The position numbers and the translations under genes were made by a program. A stretch of 64,000 bases of DNA, from positions 3,508 through 67,507 of IMG/VR virus record IMGVR_UViG_3300025849_000031; one strand, given 5' to 3'. This DNA comes from a virus. The notes below the pieces were generated by a model that saw only the letters and a list, made by a program, of their open reading frames with translations, was not told the DNA's origin and searched no databases. This document shows, piece by piece, positions 23,186 through 62,018 of the stretch (position 1 is the stretch's first letter; each line of letters begins with the position of its first letter).

Positions 23186-23491
23186 ATGAAAACTGTACAA
23201 CTACTTAAACTAACCACTGGCGAAGAGATCCTCGGTCGTGTATCTTACGCAGATGGTCTATATAATATTACTATGCCAGTGAATATTGTGCAAGACGACA
23301 GCAATATGGGGTTTGAACCATTTATGCCTTATGCTGAAACTGAATCATTTGATTTTAGTGAAGCACATATCGTTCTTGCATGTGATCCTACACCAACATT
23401 AGCTGATTATTATCTTAAAGCTACTACTGTAGAACAAGCTTCAATGATTGATACATCGGCTGCTCCATCTCAACAAGGGATTATCGTATAA
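23186..23491 (+). CDS. Hypothetical protein (Sm-like start LLKLTTGEEILG)
   Basis: GGAG RBS; resembles the 8377 ORF N-terminus in pattern. Confidence 0.6.
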   Translation: MKTVQLLKLTTGEEILGRVSYADGLYNITMPVNIVQDDSNMGFEPFMPYAETESFDFSEAHIVLACDPTPTLADYYLKATTVEQASMIDTSAAPSQQGIIV

Positions 23492-23946
23492 TGAGTAATG
23501 ATTGGGTAAAAGATATTCACGAGATGCAAACTAAATATGGCACTCGTGATTGGGTTAATGCTAACCTTGCGCATGACAAGCTGAGAGCATTCTTAGATTT
23601 CCGCATGGATTTTATTGAAGAAGAGTTTGAAGAAACTATTAAAGCTGTTGCAATTGATAATGATCCTGAAGAAATCGTTGATGGCCTTATTGATTTGTGT
23701 GTTGTTGCAATCGGTACTCTTGATGCATTCGGTATCGATCCTTATGCAGCATGGGACGCTGTGCATAAAGCAAACATGTCAAAGGAAGTTGGTGTAAAAC
23801 CTTCACGCCCTAATCCTCTTGGTGTTCCAGATTTAATTAAACCAGAAGGTTGGACTGCACCAAGTCACCAAGGCAATCATGGATTATTCCCAGCCGCGGT
23901 TGCTGTTACAGCGCCAATAAAAGATAAAACTAATTTGAAGTCTTAA
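23491..23946 (+). CDS. MazG-like nucleoside triphosphate pyrophosphohydrolase
   Basis: FIEEEFEET, EIVDGLID, VHKANMSK, LIKPEGW pattern of all-alpha NTP-PPases. Confidence 0.8.
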   Translation: MSNDWVKDIHEMQTKYGTRDWVNANLAHDKLRAFLDFRMDFIEEEFEETIKAVAIDNDPEEIVDGLIDLCVVAIGTLDAFGIDPYAAWDAVHKANMSKEVGVKPSRPNPLGVPDLIKPEGWTAPSHQGNHGLFPAAVAVTAPIKDKTNLKS

Positions 23947-26386: not shown

Positions 26387-26995
26387 ATGGCCATCACCAC
26401 TAAAATAGAATTTATTGAATATTTAAAAATCTTGTTTCGCAATAATCCAACAATTGTTGTGAAGGCAAGTGAAGTAAAAGAGCAAGCTATGAAGATCGTA
26501 AACAATACAAAGAAGCACAATCATAATGGAAGAAGCGATGCAATACAAATCGATAATGCTCTTCGTGGATGTGCATTAGAATATGCTTTCCTGAAATGTG
26601 TCCCTAAGTCATATAAGAATCCTAAAGAGTTTAATGTACGTGATAGTGATTCATATGTGTGGGATAATAAAGCTGACTTTTTAGGTGAAGAAATGTTTAT
26701 CGATTGTACTTTAGTTGATGAACGAGGTTATTTTTCAGCAGTCATTAAACCTGCTGGAGTCAATAGATCCGATGGATACGATTGGGGTAAGTTTAGGACA
26801 AAGGAAAAGAATAAAAATCTATTAGACTTCCTTGTCGGTGGAAGTGCAACCATCGATGGTACAAATATTATATGTAAGTTATCAGCAATCGCTGACGTAA
26901 AAGATGCATTCGATTATTCAAATTGGCTCAAATCTTCAGCATTCAATCATGAACATGCTATGTACTTAAGTGAAACTGTTACTCATAAGGTATAA
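26387..26995 (+). CDS. Hypothetical protein
   Basis: About 202 aa ORF; no recognised motif. Confidence 0.6.
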   Translation: MAITTKIEFIEYLKILFRNNPTIVVKASEVKEQAMKIVNNTKKHNHNGRSDAIQIDNALRGCALEYAFLKCVPKSYKNPKEFNVRDSDSYVWDNKADFLGEEMFIDCTLVDERGYFSAVIKPAGVNRSDGYDWGKFRTKEKNKNLLDFLVGGSATIDGTNIICKLSAIADVKDAFDYSNWLKSSAFNHEHAMYLSETVTHKV

Positions 26996-27002
26996 AAAAG
27001 TG

Positions 27003-27031
27003 TGTACATTTATCTCAAACTGTGTTATAAT
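27003..27031 (+). promoter_or_regulatory. Sigma70-type promoter heading the DNA-modification cluster
   Basis: TGTACA-17-TATAAT with TG extension. Confidence 0.8.
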
Positions 27032-27060: not shown

Positions 27061-27543
27061 ATGAAAGAATCTTTAAAAGTGTTACAAGAATGTGCTGATC
27101 TTCAGATTAAAAAAGCTAATGATTATCAGAATCCTAATTCAAATATTAAACAGGCAGACTACTATCCGCGCGGCGTATCATCATTACTTGATATTGTTCA
27201 TGCTAAAACATTACGTATGATGTCAGTAGTTGAAGCAATGGAGAATGATCCAGACTATAGTCCTAACTTTGAATCACTCGAAGATTCAGCAAAAGATCTA
27301 ATCAATTATGGTTCATTCATTGCTGCTTATATTCGTGGTGGTATCGATGGTCAAGATACTGATCGTGATTTCTTAAATCGTCGCAATATTGAACCTGTAG
27401 ATACTAAGCGTGACGGGCTCGGTTTAGCGATCAACACCGAAGCCGATGGTTCGGCAGTTCGTGTAAGTGGCGTTCCATACAGTGTTTCGAAACACGACGT
27501 AAAATTTAAGTGTATGCCCAGTCATGAATATGGTGATTGGTAA
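27061..27543 (+). CDS. Nucleotide-modification-associated protein (DUF1599/Nmad1-like)
   Basis: LQIKKANDY, IVHAKTLR, ESLEDSAKDLINY pattern; first gene of the cluster. Confidence 0.65.
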   Translation: MKESLKVLQECADLQIKKANDYQNPNSNIKQADYYPRGVSSLLDIVHAKTLRMMSVVEAMENDPDYSPNFESLEDSAKDLINYGSFIAAYIRGGIDGQDTDRDFLNRRNIEPVDTKRDGLGLAINTEADGSAVRVSGVPYSVSKHDVKFKCMPSHEYGDW

Positions 27544-27544
27544 A

Positions 27545-28219
27545 ATGGAATATCATAATGTTGAAGACATTCGTCAATACTTTGTTGATGAACTAGAAGC
27601 AGAAAAATTTACGACCGATCGTACTGGTGCTAAAACAATTGAGTTACTTGGTGCATCATTCATTGCTAATGAAAATGCAATCTTTGGTAGCCCAAATGAA
27701 GACTACATTCAAAAAGAACTTGAATGGTACGATAGTGAATCGACTAATATCTATGATATATCGAATGAGCCTCCTAAAGCATGGAAAATGACAGCCAATG
27801 ATCATGGTGAAATTAATTCGAACTATGGCAATCTAATATATAATGCTAAACACTACAATCAATATTATAATGTGCTGAGTGAATTACGAAATAATCCGGA
27901 CTCACGTCGTGCATCGATGGTGTATCAGCGTCCTTCAATATGGGTCGACTATAATGATAATGGTAAGAATGATTTTATTTGCACCAATGCTGTAACGTAT
28001 TATATTCGTGATAACCAACTACATTGTGTAGTTCAAATGAGATCTAATGATGTGGTCTTTGGTTATAAGAATGATTTCGCATGGCAAGAGCATGTGCTGT
28101 ATCAATTATGTGGAGATCTAAACGATCGAAATTTTGATGATCACATCGAAGTCGGTAATATCTACTGGCAAGTCCAAAACTTACACGTATATGAGAGGCA
28201 CTTTGATCTTGTCAAATAA
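27545..28219 (+). CDS. gp42: dCMP hydroxymethylase-like enzyme (thymidylate synthase superfamily)
   Basis: SRRA, DFICTNAVTYYIR, QMRSNDVVFGYKNDFAWQ, NLHVYERHF; Asp in KND as in T4 gp42 rather than the Asn of ThyA. Confidence 0.88.
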   Translation: MEYHNVEDIRQYFVDELEAEKFTTDRTGAKTIELLGASFIANENAIFGSPNEDYIQKELEWYDSESTNIYDISNEPPKAWKMTANDHGEINSNYGNLIYNAKHYNQYYNVLSELRNNPDSRRASMVYQRPSIWVDYNDNGKNDFICTNAVTYYIRDNQLHCVVQMRSNDVVFGYKNDFAWQEHVLYQLCGDLNDRNFDDHIEVGNIYWQVQNLHVYERHFDLVK

Positions 28220-28655
28220 ATGGGATAAACGTTATATGGAACTGGCCAAGACAGTATCAACTTGGTCAAAGGATCCATCAAAGAAAGTTGGTGCGGTTGC
28301 TATTGGATCTAAAGGTCAAGTTTTGGCTCAAGGATTCAATGGCTTTCCGCGTGGTATCGACGATAGTGAAAACCGCTTAGTTGATAAAGACACTAAATAT
28401 AAGTATGTCGTGCACGCTGAAATGAATCTTATATATAATGCGACATTTAATGGAACGTCATTAAATGGTTCGACAGTTTATGTGTATGGACTACCCGTCT
28501 GCTCTGAATGTGCAAAAGGTCTTATTCAGGTCGGTGTAAAACAAATCGTAATGAGTGAACACTCGATGGAAGATGCACCTGAAAAGTGGATAGAATCGTG
28601 TGAGCTTTCGGTAGCCATGCTTAACGAAGCAGGAATACATTGGAAAACAGTATGA
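28209..28655 (+). CDS. cd: dCMP deaminase
   Basis: TTG start with GAGG RBS; SKDPSKKVGAV, GFNGFPRG, HAEMN, PVCSECAK zinc motifs. Confidence 0.92.
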   Translation: MSNKWDKRYMELAKTVSTWSKDPSKKVGAVAIGSKGQVLAQGFNGFPRGIDDSENRLVDKDTKYKYVVHAEMNLIYNATFNGTSLNGSTVYVYGLPVCSECAKGLIQVGVKQIVMSEHSMEDAPEKWIESCELSVAMLNEAGIHWKTV

Positions 28656-29764
28656 AGAAAATATTAATTACAGGTATGAATAAGAATCAGACTACAAAGG
28701 ATTTTTATTTAAGACAACAACTTAAGGTAGTACCATCTCATTATTCTCTTATAAGATGCTTAGAGGATATGGGTTATGAAGTAGAACAACGATTGGTAAA
28801 GATTGGAGAAGATCTATCTGAATACCATCGGGTTATATGTTTCCTTGCATCTCCACGCCAAGCCCTCCAGTTAGCATTCTATAACGGTCTGTGGGCCATT
28901 CATGCTACACCAAAGGAAAACCTTGTATTGGCATTTGATGATTGGCAAACAGAAGATATCTTTAAAGGCATTCTATCTTGTAAAGATAAAGATTCGTTGC
29001 TGAAAGAGTTTACCATTAATCAAAACAAGATGTGTGATCCAGACATGTCGTTTGAATTACTTGAACCGCATACTGAAACATTACTTGAAGCTGTAAACTA
29101 TATTGGTGAAAAGAAAGCTCCAATGTTGCTATCAGTATTCATGGGTGGTGATCTAAGCAAGCTTGTTGATTATCCTGAAGAACTCCTTGTTGGTTATAAT
29201 CCTAATCCGTATCATCGTAACCGAGTGCCAGGCAATCGTGGTGATATTCATATCGATGAGATGGAATATATGGAACAGATTATGATGCCTTCAGTCGAAG
29301 AAGATACAGTTGCTCCAGCTGATAAGGTTAAATGCTTTAACTTTGCATCATTAGTGCAAGGTAAAACCAAGCGTTGGTTAAAGCAACAGAATGCTGATTC
29401 ATGGGAAATCGAGTTCTTTGGTTCACGTAAAGAAAAGCAACGTCGTCTTGGTGAAGGTGATATGTGTCAAGTATATGCCGAACAATGGGGTTGTCTAATG
29501 CCAGGATATAATCATGCTGGATCTGGTTGGTGGAGAGCACGCCCATTACAGCTAGCAGATGCTGGTTCTATTCTTATTGGTGAATACGAAGAGATGATGT
29601 TACTATATAATAATGAACAGCTTGCATCATTAAAGGCAAGTGATATCGTTAATCTTTCAACAGAAGAATTATCAAGTCTAGCTGATAGACAAAAAGCAGC
29701 TCTACTTCAAGAGCATCCATTAGATGAAACACTACAACAAAAGGAACTGAGTGTTATACTATGA
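28652..29764 (+). CDS. Putative DNA glycosyltransferase (GT-B fold, remote T4 beta-glucosyltransferase-like)
   Basis: N-terminus MKKILITG..VVPS...EDMGYEV, AFDD, C-terminal GWWRARP..LADAGSILIG; lies between the gp42-like gene and sugar-nucleotide enzymes. Confidence 0.55.
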   Translation: MKKILITGMNKNQTTKDFYLRQQLKVVPSHYSLIRCLEDMGYEVEQRLVKIGEDLSEYHRVICFLASPRQALQLAFYNGLWAIHATPKENLVLAFDDWQTEDIFKGILSCKDKDSLLKEFTINQNKMCDPDMSFELLEPHTETLLEAVNYIGEKKAPMLLSVFMGGDLSKLVDYPEELLVGYNPNPYHRNRVPGNRGDIHIDEMEYMEQIMMPSVEEDTVAPADKVKCFNFASLVQGKTKRWLKQQNADSWEIEFFGSRKEKQRRLGEGDMCQVYAEQWGCLMPGYNHAGSGWWRARPLQLADAGSILIGEYEEMMLLYNNEQLASLKASDIVNLSTEELSSLADRQKAALLQEHPLDETLQQKELSVIL

Positions 29765-30774
29765 AGTCAATATTAATCGTAGGCGCTGGATTCTCTGGCG
29801 CCGTAATTGCAAGAGAGCTCGCAGAAGCTGGACATAATTGTACTATAATCGATAAGCGCCATCATATTGGTGGCAATGCTTACGATTATGAGTGTAGTGG
29901 AATCCGTATTCATAAATATGGTCCTCATCTATTTCATACAAACAATAAAGAAGTAGTTGATTGGCTATCTCAATTTACTGAATGGGTTGATTATCAGCAT
30001 AAAGTTAAAGCTCAACTCTCTGATGGTCGCTATGTAACATTACCAGTTAATAAGGAAACAAAGGAGATTGTGGGTGAAGATAATATCCTCGATACATTCT
30101 TTAGACCATATACTCTCAAGATGTGGGGTAAGACTCTAGATGAACTTGATCCATCTATTATTAATCGCATTCCAACACGTGATGATGACAACGAGTTATA
30201 CTTTCCAAACGATAAATATCAGATGATGCCTAAAGATGGTTATACGAAGATCTTTGAAAATATCTTTAAGCATAAGAATATTAAGGTCTTCACTGGCACT
30301 CGTTTTACGAAGTCAATGGAAAAGAAGTATGATCATGTGTTTAACTCAATGCCAATCGATCAATACTTTAATAACAAGCATGGCGAACTTCCGTATCGCT
30401 CTATCAAGTTTCATAAGGTTCTTTTACCGATGGCTAAGGTTCTACCAACTGCTACTGTTAACTTTACACATGACGATCCATATACTCGAGTAACTGAATG
30501 GAAGAATATTCCTAATCATGGTGAATCAGCTACTCAAACAATATTAACATACGAAGAGCCATGTGATTATAAAGATAATAATAAAGAAAGATATTATCCA
30601 GTCAAAGATGTAGATGGTGTAAACAGGGAAACGTATAAAAAATATAAAGAAATGGTTGATACTGATCGTATGACTTTCATTGGTCGATGCGGAATGTATG
30701 TCTACGTGGATATGCATCAGGCAATCTCATCAGCCCTAGCAACTTCAAAGAGGTATTTAAAAGAATGCGTATAG
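29761..30774 (+). CDS. glf: UDP-galactopyranose mutase
   Basis: FAD motif GAGFSG, HIGGNAYD, HKYGPHLFHT, YQMMPKDGY, ERYYPV, GRCGMYVYVDM. Confidence 0.93.
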   Translation: MKSILIVGAGFSGAVIARELAEAGHNCTIIDKRHHIGGNAYDYECSGIRIHKYGPHLFHTNNKEVVDWLSQFTEWVDYQHKVKAQLSDGRYVTLPVNKETKEIVGEDNILDTFFRPYTLKMWGKTLDELDPSIINRIPTRDDDNELYFPNDKYQMMPKDGYTKIFENIFKHKNIKVFTGTRFTKSMEKKYDHVFNSMPIDQYFNNKHGELPYRSIKFHKVLLPMAKVLPTATVNFTHDDPYTRVTEWKNIPNHGESATQTILTYEEPCDYKDNNKERYYPVKDVDGVNRETYKKYKEMVDTDRMTFIGRCGMYVYVDMHQAISSALATSKRYLKECV

Positions 30775-31517
30775 CAATTACTGGATCAAGTGGTTTTATC
30801 GGTGGTCATGTAAAGAATAAGCTTATAGAACTAGGCCATACTGTCGATGAATGGGATTTTAAGATCGACAGGCCTGTACAGGATTTCGTAGATTTTCAAT
30901 CACCTAATGTTGATTATGTTATTCATCTTGCTGCTTATGCAGATGTAAGGGAAAGCATTAATGAACCACAAAAATACTGGGACAATAATGTAACGCTTAC
31001 TACCGAGATTCAAGAGTGGTGTAACTTCTACGATATACCTTTAATATATGCTTCATCTTCTTGTATACATGATTGGCATTTATCTCCATACGGAATGAGT
31101 AAGAAGATCAATGAAGAAACTGCATTTGAAAATCAGATTGGATTACGATTTACTACAGTTTATGGTGATGGTGCTCGCGATGAAATGCTAATTGGCAGAT
31201 TGATTGAAGGTCGAGTAAGTTATTTAACGACTCATATTCGTGATTTTGTGCATGTTGATGATGTAGTAGATGTAATGCTACTATTGATTGAAAAAGAAAT
31301 GGACGGTGTAACTCATCTTAAACCTGCTTATGATATCGGTACAGGCAAAGGTGTAGTTGTTGCAGATCTAGGACCACTAGCCGGATACGATATAGATATT
31401 AAACCAGGCGACAAATGCGAAGCTTTCGATAACACGGCTGATATATCAGATATTACAGAGCTCGGTTGGTCGCCAAAATATGATATTGAAGAATACATTA
31501 AGGATAAGACCAAATGA
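30765..31517 (+). CDS. NAD-dependent sugar-nucleotide epimerase/dehydratase (extended SDR)
   Basis: ITGSSGFIG, HLAA, YASSS, YGMSK (YxxxK), RFTTVYG, RDFVHVDD. Confidence 0.9.
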   Translation: MRIAITGSSGFIGGHVKNKLIELGHTVDEWDFKIDRPVQDFVDFQSPNVDYVIHLAAYADVRESINEPQKYWDNNVTLTTEIQEWCNFYDIPLIYASSSCIHDWHLSPYGMSKKINEETAFENQIGLRFTTVYGDGARDEMLIGRLIEGRVSYLTTHIRDFVHVDDVVDVMLLLIEKEMDGVTHLKPAYDIGTGKGVVVADLGPLAGYDIDIKPGDKCEAFDNTADISDITELGWSPKYDIEEYIKDKTK

Positions 31518-32701
31518 AATACGCAAGTATAGTACCACTGATCGGTGGAGAAACAATTGCAATGGAGAATGTGTTTGGGAAACGTCCTGAATATATTCTA
31601 TCATATAGCGCATTTGCTAATAATGATTCTCAGATTTTAAATCATTATAATAATGAAGTGCCATATCATGTGATTGACGAAGGTAATGGTAAAACAGACT
31701 ATGTCGATGTAGTCAATACTGTATGCCCATGCGCTGGGTTATCATCTCTATCTCCACAAGCCAATTCAAATAGCGCTGCAAATGATTGGATGTCCGAATC
31801 AGCTGAATACGTACTTGCTAATATTAAACCTAAAGTATTTTGGGGTGAGAATGCTCCTCGACTAGCATCAAAGATGGGCGAACCAGTCGTTAGAAAATTA
31901 CGTAAGATTGCTGAGCATCATGGGTACACGTTTTCTATATATAAGACTAAGAGCATATTACATGGTTTATCGCAAGTTCGAGACAGAACTTTCTACTTTT
32001 TCTGGAAAGGAACCCAAGTGCCACTCCTTGGTTACGTCTCGAATCCGCACACTCGTATCGAAGATCATATTCGTTCTATCCAAAGACGCAAAGATGATCC
32101 AATGAATATCTTGACTAATGAGAAGATCCCATCAGAGAATCCTTACTATCGATATGTCTTAGAAGTAATCGAAGGTGGTATTACACATTCTCAGTTCCAA
32201 GATAAGATCGAAAAGACTACAAATCCAATGGATGAAATAGAAAAGCATACGAATTATAAAGTCGTTGCTCAATGGATGCGTGCAAATGGATATGATAATG
32301 AAGCTGCTAAGTGTGATCGTAAGTATCACAAACTTAAAGCAGGTGGTAATATTATGCGTAAGACAACCGAAATACCCAAGGATTATATTGGTGCTTTCGT
32401 TGGTCACTTCCCAACAAATCTATGTCACCCTGACGAAGATCGATATCTAACTGTAAGAGAAGCAATGTCTATTATGAAGCTTCCAGATGATTTCAATCTA
32501 ATAAACCCTAAGGCTAATCTAAATCATATATGCCAGAACGTTCCTGTTACAACAGCAGAACATCCAGCTCGTATGATTAAGAAGTGGCTTGAAGGTAATA
32601 CTGTTGATTCAATTGAGACTAAGTTCTTAGTTGAAGACAACAAGAAACGCACCTATGATTATGAAAATAACGGTGTACAATTAGATAGTTTTATGTTATA
32701 A
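31514..32701 (+). CDS. Divergent DNA cytosine-C5 methyltransferase-like protein
   Basis: Catalytic PC (VCPCAGLS), ENA (motif VI), QVRDR (VIII), HP...RYLTVREAM (IX), QNVP (X); motif I degenerate (VPLIGG). Confidence 0.75.
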   Translation: MKYASIVPLIGGETIAMENVFGKRPEYILSYSAFANNDSQILNHYNNEVPYHVIDEGNGKTDYVDVVNTVCPCAGLSSLSPQANSNSAANDWMSESAEYVLANIKPKVFWGENAPRLASKMGEPVVRKLRKIAEHHGYTFSIYKTKSILHGLSQVRDRTFYFFWKGTQVPLLGYVSNPHTRIEDHIRSIQRRKDDPMNILTNEKIPSENPYYRYVLEVIEGGITHSQFQDKIEKTTNPMDEIEKHTNYKVVAQWMRANGYDNEAAKCDRKYHKLKAGGNIMRKTTEIPKDYIGAFVGHFPTNLCHPDEDRYLTVREAMSIMKLPDDFNLINPKANLNHICQNVPVTTAEHPARMIKKWLEGNTVDSIETKFLVEDNKKRTYDYENNGVQLDSFML

Positions 32702-32702
32702 T
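32674..32702 (+). promoter_or_regulatory. Sigma70-type promoter for the bS21-uvsX-gp41 unit
   Basis: TGTACA-17-TATAAT embedded in the 3' end of the MTase-like gene. Confidence 0.75.
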
Positions 32703-36135: not shown

Positions 36136-36789
36136 ATGAAAGTAAATCTAGTTTCTTATTCACAAGTACCAGATGATAGTGAACTACCAAATGATATGCT
36201 TCAACTTGTTGCGTATTGTGCACGAGTATCGAATCCCAGTAATCAAAACAATACTGAGACTTCAGAGAAGCTAGTTAAGTATCTTATTAAGCACAAACAT
36301 TGGTCACCTTTAGAGATGGTCAATGTTTGCTTAGAGATCGATACTACTCGCGATATTGCACGACAATTATTACGCCATCGATCATTTACGTTTCAAGAGT
36401 TCTCTCAACGATATGCAAATCCTGATGAAGGCTTTGATAATATGTTTGAGAAGCGTGAAGCTCGATTACAAGATGAAAAGAACAGGCAAAATTCTGTAGT
36501 GACTGATGATGAAGCTATTGCGCATGAATGGTTTAGGATTCAAAGCCGAGTAGAGTATATGGCTGCCAAATGTTATAAAGAGGCATTGGCCTTAGGTATC
36601 GCAAAGGAACAAGCAAGAGCGTTATTGCCTGAAGGTCTTACGAAGTCTCGTTTATATGTAAATGGTACGCTACGATCATGGTTACATTATATTGATCTAC
36701 GTTCTTCTAACGGTACTCAGCTTGAGCATTGTGAGATCGCAAAGGCTTGTGGAGAAGTTATATATAAACTATTCCCTATGGAAGAGTAA
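36136..36789 (+). CDS. thyX: FAD-dependent thymidylate synthase
   Basis: HWSPLE, RQLLRHRSFTFQEFSQRY signature, KEQARALLP. Confidence 0.96.
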   Translation: MKVNLVSYSQVPDDSELPNDMLQLVAYCARVSNPSNQNNTETSEKLVKYLIKHKHWSPLEMVNVCLEIDTTRDIARQLLRHRSFTFQEFSQRYANPDEGFDNMFEKREARLQDEKNRQNSVVTDDEAIAHEWFRIQSRVEYMAAKCYKEALALGIAKEQARALLPEGLTKSRLYVNGTLRSWLHYIDLRSSNGTQLEHCEIAKACGEVIYKLFPMEE

Positions 36790-46046: not shown

Positions 46047-46289
46047 GTGATAGCTTTTAAAGATTTTATAGCAGAAGGCGAAGGTAAGCATAAGGGCGAA
46101 GGCTACGAAGCGGGCTTTAAGCGTCGTGTAGTAAAGACTACTAAGCCTGAACATAAAGAGAAAGGGTTTAATTGGAGAATCAAAGGTAAAGAAAGACCTG
46201 AGGTTACTATTAAGCTATATAAAACTAAACCTGATTTTGCTGAATTTAAAAAGCAAATGAAAAGAGTGGCAGGACACGAGTTTGGATAA
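46047..46289 (+). CDS. Basic small protein, probable internal virion protein
   Basis: GTG start; leader MIAFKDFIAE. Confidence 0.65.
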   Translation: MIAFKDFIAEGEGKHKGEGYEAGFKRRVVKTTKPEHKEKGFNWRIKGKERPEVTIKLYKTKPDFAEFKKQMKRVAGHEFG

Positions 46290-61236: not shown

Positions 61237-61470
61237 GTGAAAAGTACTTCTATGATGTATGTCGATGAGATACTAGATGGATTTGCTAAAGGTGATTCGA
61301 GTCGACAGGCTTTCGTATTTAAAAAGACTGATGCACATAATGTTCCACACTATGGCTGCCGATACTATGAGAATCAAATCTTTCGCTTTGATGAGTTCTA
61401 CCAAACTAAAAGTATTCACTATGCTAAAAAAGCTGCACAAAATTGGATCAATGGTGTAAAGAATTCGTGA
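61237..61470 (+). CDS. Hypothetical protein
   Basis: GTG start with AAGGAAGG RBS. Confidence 0.55.
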   Translation: MKSTSMMYVDEILDGFAKGDSSRQAFVFKKTDAHNVPHYGCRYYENQIFRFDEFYQTKSIHYAKKAAQNWINGVKNS

Positions 61471-62018
61471 GCAATCTAAGCGATTATATTAAAGTCTATG
61501 ATGATGTTATAACAAAAGAAACATGTGATTATTTAATATCTTTATATGATGCTGCTGCACCATTAGAAGCAGAGCATAAAAAGAATACATGCTATAATTT
61601 TCATGAAATTAATATGATGCAATCAAAAGCTTTCGAAAGTGTAAGTGAACAATTCGCTGGTTTAATGCAAGGCATACATCGTCAATATTCTTCTCAGTTC
61701 GAATTCTTTCCAGAAACAAACGCATTCGAGCAACCACGCATTAAACGCTATGAACCAAATGAAGGTGTCTTTGATTGGCATACTGATAATACAACAGTTG
61801 AATCAAGTAAAAGAACGCTTGTTATGTTTTTCTATTTAAACGATGTAGAAGATGGTGGTGAGACTATGTTTAGATTCGAACCAGGCATGGAAGAAATTAA
61901 AGTAAAGCCAAAAGCTGGTTCAGTATTATGTTTTCCGCCAACATGGCAATATCCTCACATGGGTTGTACTCCAATATCAGGGCCCAAATATGTCATATCT
62001 AGCTACGTACAGGTTTAG
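61467..62018 (+). CDS. 2OG-Fe(II) oxygenase (prolyl-4-hydroxylase-like)
   Basis: WHTD, FYLNDVEDGGET, PPTWQYPH, KY. Confidence 0.88.
   Translation: MSNLSDYIKVYDDVITKETCDYLISLYDAAAPLEAEHKKNTCYNFHEINMMQSKAFESVSEQFAGLMQGIHRQYSSQFEFFPETNAFEQPRIKRYEPNEGVFDWHTDNTTVESSKRTLVMFFYLNDVEDGGETMFRFEPGMEEIKVKPKAGSVLCFPPTWQYPHMGCTPISGPKYVISSYVQV

Follow-up and report, generated by a model that had tools for sequence, protein, structure and literature searches.

Which DNA base is built by a phage operon in which the gene for a T4 gp42-type dCMP hydroxymethylase is followed by genes for a glycosyltransferase (GT) and for a UDP-galactopyranose mutase (Glf)? The operon in question occupies positions 27061-32701 of a 64-kb stretch of viral DNA (hereafter the window), part of the 67.7-kb IMG/VR viral contig IMGVR_UViG_3300025849_000031, for which CheckV gives a completeness of 38%. 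An initial annotation, made from the sequence alone, had proposed that the phage makes a furanose donor and attaches its sugar to 5-hydroxymethylcytosine (5hmC) or to 5-hydroxycytosine (5hoC). Our computational analysis supports the furanose-on-5hmC part of this proposal and speaks against the 5hoC alternative, as judged by the active-site signature of the base-making enzyme. We consider it fairly probable that 5hmC in the DNA of this phage is glycosylated with galactofuranose (Galf) drawn from phage-made UDP-Galf. The same annotation had listed seven coupled genes: a DUF1599/Nmad1-like open reading frame (ORF), a gp42-like dCMP hydroxymethylase, a dCMP deaminase, a GT-B-like ORF, Glf, an epimerase of the short-chain dehydrogenase/reductase (SDR) family and a divergent C5-cytosine methyltransferase (C5-MTase). 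All seven ORFs are present on the + strand at these positions, and every assignment from the second gene onwards held up by family, motif or predicted fold, as described below.

The enzyme expected to make the base is a homolog of thymidylate synthase ThyA (27524..28219, + strand, likely start 27545; PF00303, E 3.9e-18). It matches T4 dCMP hydroxymethylase (PDB 1b49) with an E value of 1.5e-73 and ~53% identity over residues 12-230, compared to only ~1e-10 for E. coli thymidylate synthase. A ThyA homolog of phages RB69, DLP3 and RL38J1 makes 5-hydroxy-dCMP, and Asn169 has been proposed as diagnostic of this activity (Lee et al. NAR 2026, PMC13326640). We aligned the active sites of the window enzyme, E. 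coli ThyA, T4 gp42, RB69 gp48, both homologs of Rhizobium phage P10VF, those of phages JD18, Aeromonas 25 and Erwinia FBB1, and seven metagenomic relatives, and compared 13 positions, namely the 12 located within 6 Å of C5 in the list of Lee et al. and R166 (E. coli ThyA numbering). The window enzyme is identical to gp42 at 12 of the 13 (W80, Y94, D143, C146, T147, M165, R166, S167, N168, D169, G173 and D177), whereas RB69 gp48 and P10VF_b share a differing set (A80, F94, E143, Q168, N169 and V173). The catalytic C146 and the D177 of dCMP specificity are found in the window enzyme and in the seven relatives. The gp42 signature, with Asp and not Asn at position 169, therefore places the enzyme in the 5-hydroxymethyl-dCMP type, and the predicted base is 5hmC, not 5hoC. 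A 5-hydroxy-dCMP synthase of the RB69 gp48 type was considered and rejected: D169N is absent, and five more discriminating positions follow gp42. Asp177 also speaks against a dUMP hydroxymethylase, since dUMP enzymes have Asn at this position.

The candidate 5hmC furanosyltransferase is a 370-residue protein (28652..29764, + strand; phrog_14998, an unnamed family). No Pfam family was matched at E<=1, including T4-Gluco-transf PF09198 (GT63), and an exhaustive HMMER search collected 444 clusters at E<=0.001. Its AlphaFold2 model, obtained from a 106-sequence alignment, has a pLDDT of 93.7 and a pTM of 0.91 and adopts a GT-B fold. Foldseek comparison of this model with the PDB returned first T4 beta-glucosyltransferase (BGT; 1qkj, E 3.6e-6, probability 1.00, TM 0.54-0.56), then SenB and T4 alpha-glucosyltransferase (AGT). 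Similarly, when 48,161 PDB chains were compared by VIA-align, T4 BGT came out on top (Z 16.7 over 287 aligned residues), followed by T4 AGT (Z 15.6), with ordinary GT-B enzymes just under the latter at Z 15.2 and lower.

The donor would be prepared by two enzymes encoded immediately downstream. Glf, a compact member of its family (29761..30774, + strand; PF03275, E 1.2e-53; 3hdq, E 2.9e-76), matches PF03275 at 2-203 of its 203 positions, which supports the mutase assignment at the level of the family. FAD-binding PF13450 is also matched (E 1e-19), the GxGxxG motif is present, and the RIPTR, LPYRS, YYPV and GR...Y.Y motifs, which hold the substrate arginines and tyrosines, align with the UDP-galactopyranose mutases (UGMs) of D. 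radiodurans (3hdq) and K. pneumoniae. The SDR (30765..31517, + strand; PF01370, E 2.2e-25) is a short GalE-like protein, presumed to be a UDP-hexose 4-epimerase. Its best PDB match is the UDP-glucose 4-epimerase 4zrm (E 1.5e-14), aligned end to end with several deletions, and its GxxGxxG (TGSSGFIGG) and YxxxK (YGMSK) motifs are present. With its start corrected to 30765 it is only 250 residues long, compared to ~310-340 for GalE-type enzymes with a full C-terminal substrate-binding domain. The simplest donor route would lead from UDP-glucose to UDP-galactopyranose (UDP-Galp) and on to UDP-Galf.

These genes appear to be expressed together. The seven ORFs open at 27061, 27524, 28134, 28640, 29761, 30687 and 31514; family alignments give as likely starts after the first gene 27545 (or 27524), ~28191, 28652, 29761, 30765 and 31514. 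With the corrected starts adjacent genes overlap by 4 to 29 nt, and ATGA-type stop/start overlaps are found at three junctions (deaminase/GT, GT/Glf and SDR/C5-MTase). A promoter-like site, TGTACA-N17-TATAAT with a TG extension, stands in front of the operon (27003..27031, + strand), and the next copy of the same motif marks the end of the unit (32674..32702, + strand). The phage-specific motif TGTACA-N17-(TG)TTATAAT has 16 copies in the window, where 1.1 would be expected, and 0 of 100 shuffles reached this number; 15 of the 16 copies are on the + strand, mostly just 5' of genes of the replication module (sites include 8841, 12676, 15283, 16742, 20562, 27003, 32674, 34049, 37257, 37388, 55131, 62080 and 63504 on the + strand and 8816-8788 on the - strand). 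It is absent between 27032 and 32673. The flanking motifs and the gene overlaps thus make a single transcription unit a reasonable inference, in line with the one promoter claimed initially, at the level of motif evidence.

The first gene of the unit, ORF1 (27061..27543, + strand), encodes a 160-residue, all-alpha, MazG/DUF1599-like protein and lies directly 5' of the ThyA homolog in most relatives. The DUF1599/Nmad1-like label that it had received is not confirmed by Pfam: neither hmmscan (E<=1) nor a six-frame search (E<=10) found DUF1599 (PF07659), and no other Pfam family was matched. What stands is a match to the MazG-like PHROG 'hydrolase' phrog_18404 (E 1.1e-11) and language-model neighbours that carry DUF1599 (score 0.92). 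Just 5' of the operon promoter is a 202-residue ORF (26387-26995) that is unmatched in Pfam and PHROG and kept only in the nearest relative, L017.

The nucleotide metabolism encoded in and around the operon resembles that of T4 in several respects. The dCMP deaminase (28191..28655, + strand, ORF opening at 28134; PF00383, E 1.4e-18; phrog_174, E 2.8e-39) shows HAE and PCxxC zinc motifs. The phage also has its own dTMP synthase, ThyX (36136..36789, + strand; PF02511, E 1e-39; phrog_85), whose presence frees the ThyA homolog for a non-thymidylate role and explains the deaminase as a supplier of dUMP, as in T4. Beside the primase gene is a nucleotide pyrophosphohydrolase of the MazG/PRA-PH type (23491..23946, + strand; PF01503, E 1.6e-11; phrog_671), a 39%-identical homolog of which adjoins the 5hoC-type ThyA homolog of Rhizobium phage P10VF. 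Neither of the MazG-like proteins showed significant BLASTP similarity to T4 gp56; family, position and the P10VF homolog make the pyrophosphohydrolase a candidate dCTPase and a possible functional analogue of T4 gp56.

We then considered where the operon lies. T4 arranges its genes as 43 - 42 - beta-gt - uvsX, followed at some distance by gene 41, and in Klebsiella phage JD18 the order is 43 - 42 - glucosyltransferase - uvsX - 40 - 41. The window and its relatives read gp43 - MazG - primase - ... - ORF1 - ThyA homolog - deaminase - GT - Glf - SDR - C5-MTase - UvsX - gp41 - ThyX. By this match in gene order, the sugar cassette occupies the slot of T4 beta-gt. The gene order of the operon is kept in at least 17 relatives, down to 45-60% protein identity, which is more than would arise by chance. 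The GT itself is found in 17 IMG/VR loci at 63-98% identity and in the same order; one of them, L023, lies in a 219.7-kb genome rated complete.

A scan centred on Glf retrieved more than 553 viral loci in IMG/VR, and neighbourhoods were counted in the best 80 (65-93% identity). The GT gene lies directly upstream of Glf in 58 of the 65 loci with at least 1.2 kb of upstream sequence. A ThyA homolog and a deaminase are present in 43 of the 52 loci with at least 4.5 kb upstream; 46 of these 52 bear the GT, and 43 of the 46 carry a gp42-type ThyA homolog with the deaminase. Among the 41 GT-bearing loci with both flanks, the SDR is present in 31 and a C5-MTase in 28; both are therefore accessory, and the core consists of GT, Glf and the ThyA homolog. 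The initial annotation had looked to the co-occurrence of gp42 and glf, and Glf does stand mostly with the GT and the gp42-type gene (58/65; 43/52), apart from a few exceptions in glycan islands. A variant arrangement was seen in the clade L021-L028 (L026:6442-7998), where genes for a DUF6552 protein, a cytidylyltransferase-like protein (PF01467) and a different SDR are located between deaminase and GT. A cytidylyltransferase-like gene is also found 3' of Glf in L094 and L114. These inserted cytidylyltransferase and SDR genes may supply a second activated sugar or a cofactor.

Beyond these relatives, adjacent GT and Glf genes (GT identity 25-36%) occur in Aeromonas phage 25 and its relatives, including Stenotrophomonas phage IME13, and in Erwinia phage FBB1, all of them cultured. 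Phages Aes508, phiAS4 and AS-gz are further cultured carriers of the cassette. The hydroxymethylases of phage 25 and FBB1, both gp42-type Straboviridae, carry the gp42 signature, and in neither phage is the GT-Glf pair accompanied by a C5-methylase. In the record of phage 25 (L004:6995-9176), Glf and the GT-like gene are annotated as 'not conserved in bacteriophage 44RR2.8t', while the flanking genes are conserved. The pair in phage 25 thus has the appearance of an inserted two-gene cassette beside motA. Aeromonas phages 44RR, 31 and 25 had been described as having gene 42 but no glucosyltransferase homolog, and marine cyanophages, by implication, as lacking gene 42 (Petrov et al. 2010, PMC2993671). 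In Phage C48C1 (OQ984149.1, L001:5555-9002), consecutive genes encode a Tet_JBP dioxygenase (472 residues; PF12851, E 3.3e-17), a BGT-like GT 34-36% identical to that of the window, and Glf, all unannotated in GenBank. No ThyA-family gene and no C5-methylase were found in the C48C1 genome. The association of GT and Glf with either a gp42-type or a TET/JBP enzyme suggests that two routes to a hydroxymethylpyrimidine share one sugar module. In C48C1 the target is possibly the thymine-derived 5-hydroxymethyluracil (5hmU), giving a base-J-like galactofuranosyl base.

In other phages, members of the same GT family form the C-terminal domain of proteins with an N-terminal C5-cytosine methylase, which ties the family to DNA cytosine. 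These fusions (P0046, P0049, P0073, P0129, P0052, P0122 and P0064) are 750-1400 residues long, and some have a domain of the uracil-DNA glycosylase (UDG) superfamily in between. In P0052 and P0122 an intein with a LAGLIDADG endonuclease interrupts the methylase domain. The contig of P0049 encodes, besides the C5-MTase-GT fusion, an HhH-GPD-like protein, a PRA-PH/MazG protein, a ThyA homolog, a dCMP deaminase and a 5-hmU DNA kinase (HMUDK_hel), and could represent a double hypermodification system for thymidine and cytosine. Taken together, the fusions, the gp42 and TET neighbours and the P0049 contig tie the GT family to DNA pyrimidines. From this context, namely the gp42/TET neighbours, the beta-gt slot and the C5-methylase fusions, the acceptor of the window GT is predicted to be 5hmC in DNA.

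The last gene of the operon encodes an enzyme of the C5-cytosine methyltransferase family (31514..32701, + strand; PF00145, E 7.2e-18). It has motifs IV, VI, VIII and X of this family, and P72-C73, E112-N113, Q154/R156/R158 and N342-V343-P344 do not vary among 18 relatives with identities as low as 41%. Motif I reads VPLIGG, compared to the canonical FxGxG, and the Pfam alignment begins at profile position 10. Homologs ~32% identical are stand-alone 'DNA methylases' in S-TIM5-type cyanophages and in a Pseudoalteromonas phage. No Tet_JBP domain was detected by Pfam in the window or in the complete relative G001, while the positive control in C48C1 was detected. A TET enzyme acting on the product of the C5-methylase was on this account rejected for this clade, and the C5-MTase does not feed a route from 5-methylcytosine (5mC) to 5hmC. 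It is probably an accessory, co-expressed enzyme that is not required for glycosylation; cytosines that escape modification, or that are still unmodified early on, may be its substrate, or it may serve a function connected with the GT, a possibility suggested by the fusions.

The pathway that we propose on this basis runs as follows. The gp42-type enzyme would convert dCMP to 5-hydroxymethyl-dCMP, and the deaminase would convert dCMP to dUMP, to be used by the phage ThyX for dTMP. The MazG-type pyrophosphohydrolase, encoded 3 kb 5' of the operon, probably excludes dCTP from the pool. The GalE-like SDR would turn UDP-glucose into UDP-galactopyranose, which Glf would contract to UDP-galactofuranose. 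After replication, the BGT-like GT-B enzyme would attach the furanose to the DNA at the 5hmC hydroxymethyl group, and the product, galactofuranosyl-oxymethyl-cytosine, would shield the genome from host nucleases. Sequence and structure prediction provide the enzyme families, the gp42-type active site, a GT-B fold whose closest counterparts are the DNA glucosyltransferases of T4, and a conserved linkage between GT, Glf and gp42-type genes; from these we infer acceptor, donor, ring form, anomer, completeness of replacement and the role of the dCTPase.

Several points weigh against this pathway. The identity of the sugar and its ring form are predictions from genes, and a GT-B fold leaves both acceptor and donor unfixed. 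BLASTP of the GT against T4 BGT is not significant (E 0.025 over 11 residues), and hhalign of the 106-sequence GT profile against T4 BGT gives a probability of 43% and E 2.5e-4 for the N-terminal 73 columns only; given this marginal homology, the GT was classed as an enzyme working like BGT/AGT and not as a member of PF09198. Glf lacks ~37 residues of the helical domain compared to solved UGMs. Enzymes of the Glf family also act on UDP-N-acetylgalactosamine (UDP-GalNAc), UDP-arabinose and dTDP-fucose, and a UGM is not confidently separable by sequence from UNGM or Fcf2-type mutases. No convincing hm-dCMP (dNMP) kinase was found within the 64-kb window, where the only weak candidate is a thymidylate-kinase-like P-loop protein (46282-46947). 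The 80 surveyed Glf loci are the nearest relatives, so that the counts obtained from them are not independent events. Six of these 80 are without a BGT-like GT, and in L111 (7582-14705) and L085 a Glf 65-69% identical to that of the window lies in a GT25/GT8/methyltransferase glycan island without such a GT. Glf alone is thus not diagnostic of DNA modification, and in related phages the same mutase gene appears to move between DNA-modification and glycan-assembly contexts. Three GT-Glf loci (L080, L094 and L114) have no ThyA homolog within 10 kb; in L094 the pair is flanked by ThyX and ribonucleotide reductase. Finally, the proposed pathway does not explain the C5-MTase, for which a genome with every cytosine already carrying a C5 substituent would seem to have little use.

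Some of these points would fit the same pathway ending in a different sugar: another furanose or hexose, with the mutase acting on UDP-GalNAc, UDP-arabinose or a 6-deoxyhexose, or Galf added as a second sugar after one from a host donor. The deletion in the helical lid domain of Glf, the unusual shortness of the SDR, whose substrate is not fixed, and the sub-clade with a cytidylyltransferase-like gene and a different SDR, in which sugar supply evidently varies, all favour it, as does the arabinofuranose carried by cytosine in RB69 and DLP3 (PMC13326640). However, the mutase finds its best matches among bona fide UGMs, with the uridine/diphosphate-binding arginine motifs aligned, the best end-to-end match of the SDR is a UDP-glucose 4-epimerase, and the operon has a single GT and none of the pentose-activation genes of the RB69/DLP3 kind. 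We regard a different sugar as possible though not likely. It is decidedly less likely that GT, Glf and SDR build a glycan outside DNA, on a virion protein, the host envelope or a small molecule, and are merely co-transcribed with genes of nucleotide metabolism. The close Glf homologs in islands typical of marine T4-like phage glycan clusters, the GT-B fold common to many lipopolysaccharide and cell-wall enzymes and the three GT-Glf loci devoid of a ThyA homolog would agree with such a role. Against it stand T4 BGT and AGT as nearest structural neighbours, the beta-gt slot, the gp42-type gene in 43 of 46 GT-bearing loci, the TET/JBP-GT-Glf arrangement of C48C1, the fusion of the GT domain to C5-cytosine DNA methylases, and the position of L094 between ThyX and ribonucleotide reductase.

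A different base, either 5-hydroxy-dCMP made by the ThyA homolog or 5-hydroxymethyl-dUMP made from the dUMP of the deaminase and leading to a base-J-like sugar on uracil, seems to us very improbable. RL38J1, which is alone among published phages in having a Glf-linked cytosine sugar, does use 5hoC (PMC13326640), a dCMP deaminase gene is immediately 3' of the ThyA homolog as in 5hmU phages, and on a distant contig the GT family is found alongside ThyA, a deaminase and the domain of a 5-hmU DNA kinase. But D169N is absent, five further positions are gp42-like and position 177 is Asp, not the Asn of dUMP enzymes; moreover, T4 too encodes a dCMP deaminase beside gp42, and ThyX is available to use the dUMP. 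As for the C5-MTase, it might be integral to hypermodification, acting on C5-substituted cytosines or handing them over together with the GT. Its ATGA coupling to the SDR, its presence next to Glf/SDR in 28 of 41 relatives, its invariant catalytic Cys, ENx, QxRxR and NVP motifs with a non-canonical motif I, the fusion of the GT family to C5-methylase domains, some with UDG between, and the lack in the complete relative G001 of a TET to use 5mC all point this way. Yet the 13 of 41 GT-Glf relatives without the C5-MTase keep the gp42-type enzyme; the 32%-identical homologs stand alone in S-TIM5-type cyanophages; Aeromonas phage 25, FBB1 and C48C1 pair GT and Glf without a C5-methylase; and the methylase domains of the fusions are only distantly related to that of the window. 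An integral role is thus rather unlikely. For the wider combination in which 5-(galactofuranosyl-oxymethyl)cytosine is a natural base made through a mobile GT-Glf cassette, by the gp42 or the TET/JBP route, in T4-like phages whose hosts are marine bacteria, freshwater bacteria or enterobacteria, and in which the C5-MTase is non-methylating or directed to hmC and coupled to the GT, as the C5-MTase(-UDG)-GT fusions hint, we find the balance even.

The Galf-on-5hmC pathway can be placed among known systems. With the T-even glucosylation of 5hmC (T4 gp42, cd, gp56, alpha-gt and beta-gt) it shares the gp42 signature, the dCMP deaminase, the BGT/AGT-like GT-B fold and the slot between 42 and uvsX. 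It differs in that the donor would come from the phage Glf and GalE-like SDR, whereas T4 uses host UDP-glucose; in addition, the GT is outside PF09198, the candidate dCTPase is of the MazG/PRA-PH type and not gp56-like, dTMP is made via ThyX, and there is an extra C5-methyltransferase. The initial annotation knew of no description of galactofuranosyl-cytosine as a DNA base. This is outdated, as UDP-galactofuranose has been proposed as the donor for cytosine-linked galactose on 5hoC in Rhizobium phage RL38J1 (Lee et al., NAR 2026, PMC13326640); its coupling to gp42-type 5hmC is undescribed in the literature searched. RL38J1 (Pootjesviridae) resembles the window by a phage UDP-galactopyranose mutase, a base made at the nucleotide level by a ThyA homolog and, in the relative P10VF, a MazG-type neighbour. 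In contrast to the gp42-type enzyme of the window, its base is 5hoC made by a D169N flavin-type enzyme. The two Glf proteins are ~36% identical, Glf of RL38J1 is not adjacent to the GT, the GTs proposed there are different proteins, and the furanose form is unproven there too.

Furanose on a C5-functionalised cytosine of T4-like phages, placed on DNA by GT-B enzymes, is also known as arabinofuranosyl-5hoC in RB69 and DLP3 (PMC13326640; PMC6024577); there the sugar is a pentose supplied by an arabinose-5-phosphate route and not by a pyranose-furanose mutase, and the base is 5hoC. Lee et al. used NMR shifts of ring carbons above 80 ppm as the mark of a furanose. In the C5-MT/5mYOX (TET)/GT clusters (Burke et al. 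2021, PMC8256090; Pyle et al., bioRxiv 10.1101/2023.12.21.572611), a GT and a nucleotide-sugar enzyme likewise decorate 5hmC and a C5-methyltransferase is part of the cluster. In contrast, 5hmC in the window would come from the nucleotide pool and not from methylation and oxidation, and TET is lacking. Epimerase-dependent GTs put hexose, N-acetylhexosamine, heptose and hexuronate on 5hmC (Pyle et al., bioRxiv 10.1101/2023.12.21.572611), and this preprint, which gives a mass of ~419 Da for hexosyl-5hmC, mentions neither mutase nor furanose. Lee et al. 2026 (PMC13326640) was the only hit when the literature was searched for galactofuranose combined with phage hydroxymethylcytosine. The combination of Glf and a BGT-like GT on a gp42-type 5hmC pathway, the spread of the two-gene cassette and its TET-linked version are thus undescribed in the literature searched.

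If the proposed pathway is correct, a furanose hexose on 5hmC joins the natural DNA bases, and the sugar layer of T4-type phages would be a swappable cassette of GT and donor enzymes, independent of the source of the hydroxymethyl group. With more than 553 IMG/VR loci carrying close Glf relatives, the modification could be widespread among T4-like phages in the environment, in which case it would matter for the evasion of restriction, CRISPR and type IV defences and for the sequencing and cloning of such DNA. The presence of the cassette in cultured Aeromonas, Stenotrophomonas and Erwinia phages makes the question raised by Petrov et al. (PMC2993671), of gene 42 without a glucosyltransferase, now testable. 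A DNA GT transferring Galf would also be useful for the labelling of 5hmC.

The remainder of the window points to a T4-type phage. Its GC content is ~36% and its large ORFs are all on the + strand. It encodes a T4-type structural core (portal, prohead protease, scaffold and major head protein) and a T4-type replication set (UvsW-type helicase, gp46/47, clamp, clamp loader, RegA, gp43 polymerase, primase, UvsX and gp41), as well as CobS/CobT-like proteins, Hsp20, PhoH and ThyX. Megablast of the operon against 50,697 phage records gave zero matches; the closest cultured relative for the operon genes is Phage C48C1, classified in Kyanoviridae. A 2OG-Fe(II) oxygenase gene (61443-62018; phrog_61, E 5.6e-43), not assigned to Tet_JBP in a Pfam search of the contig, is of a kind common in cyanomyoviruses.

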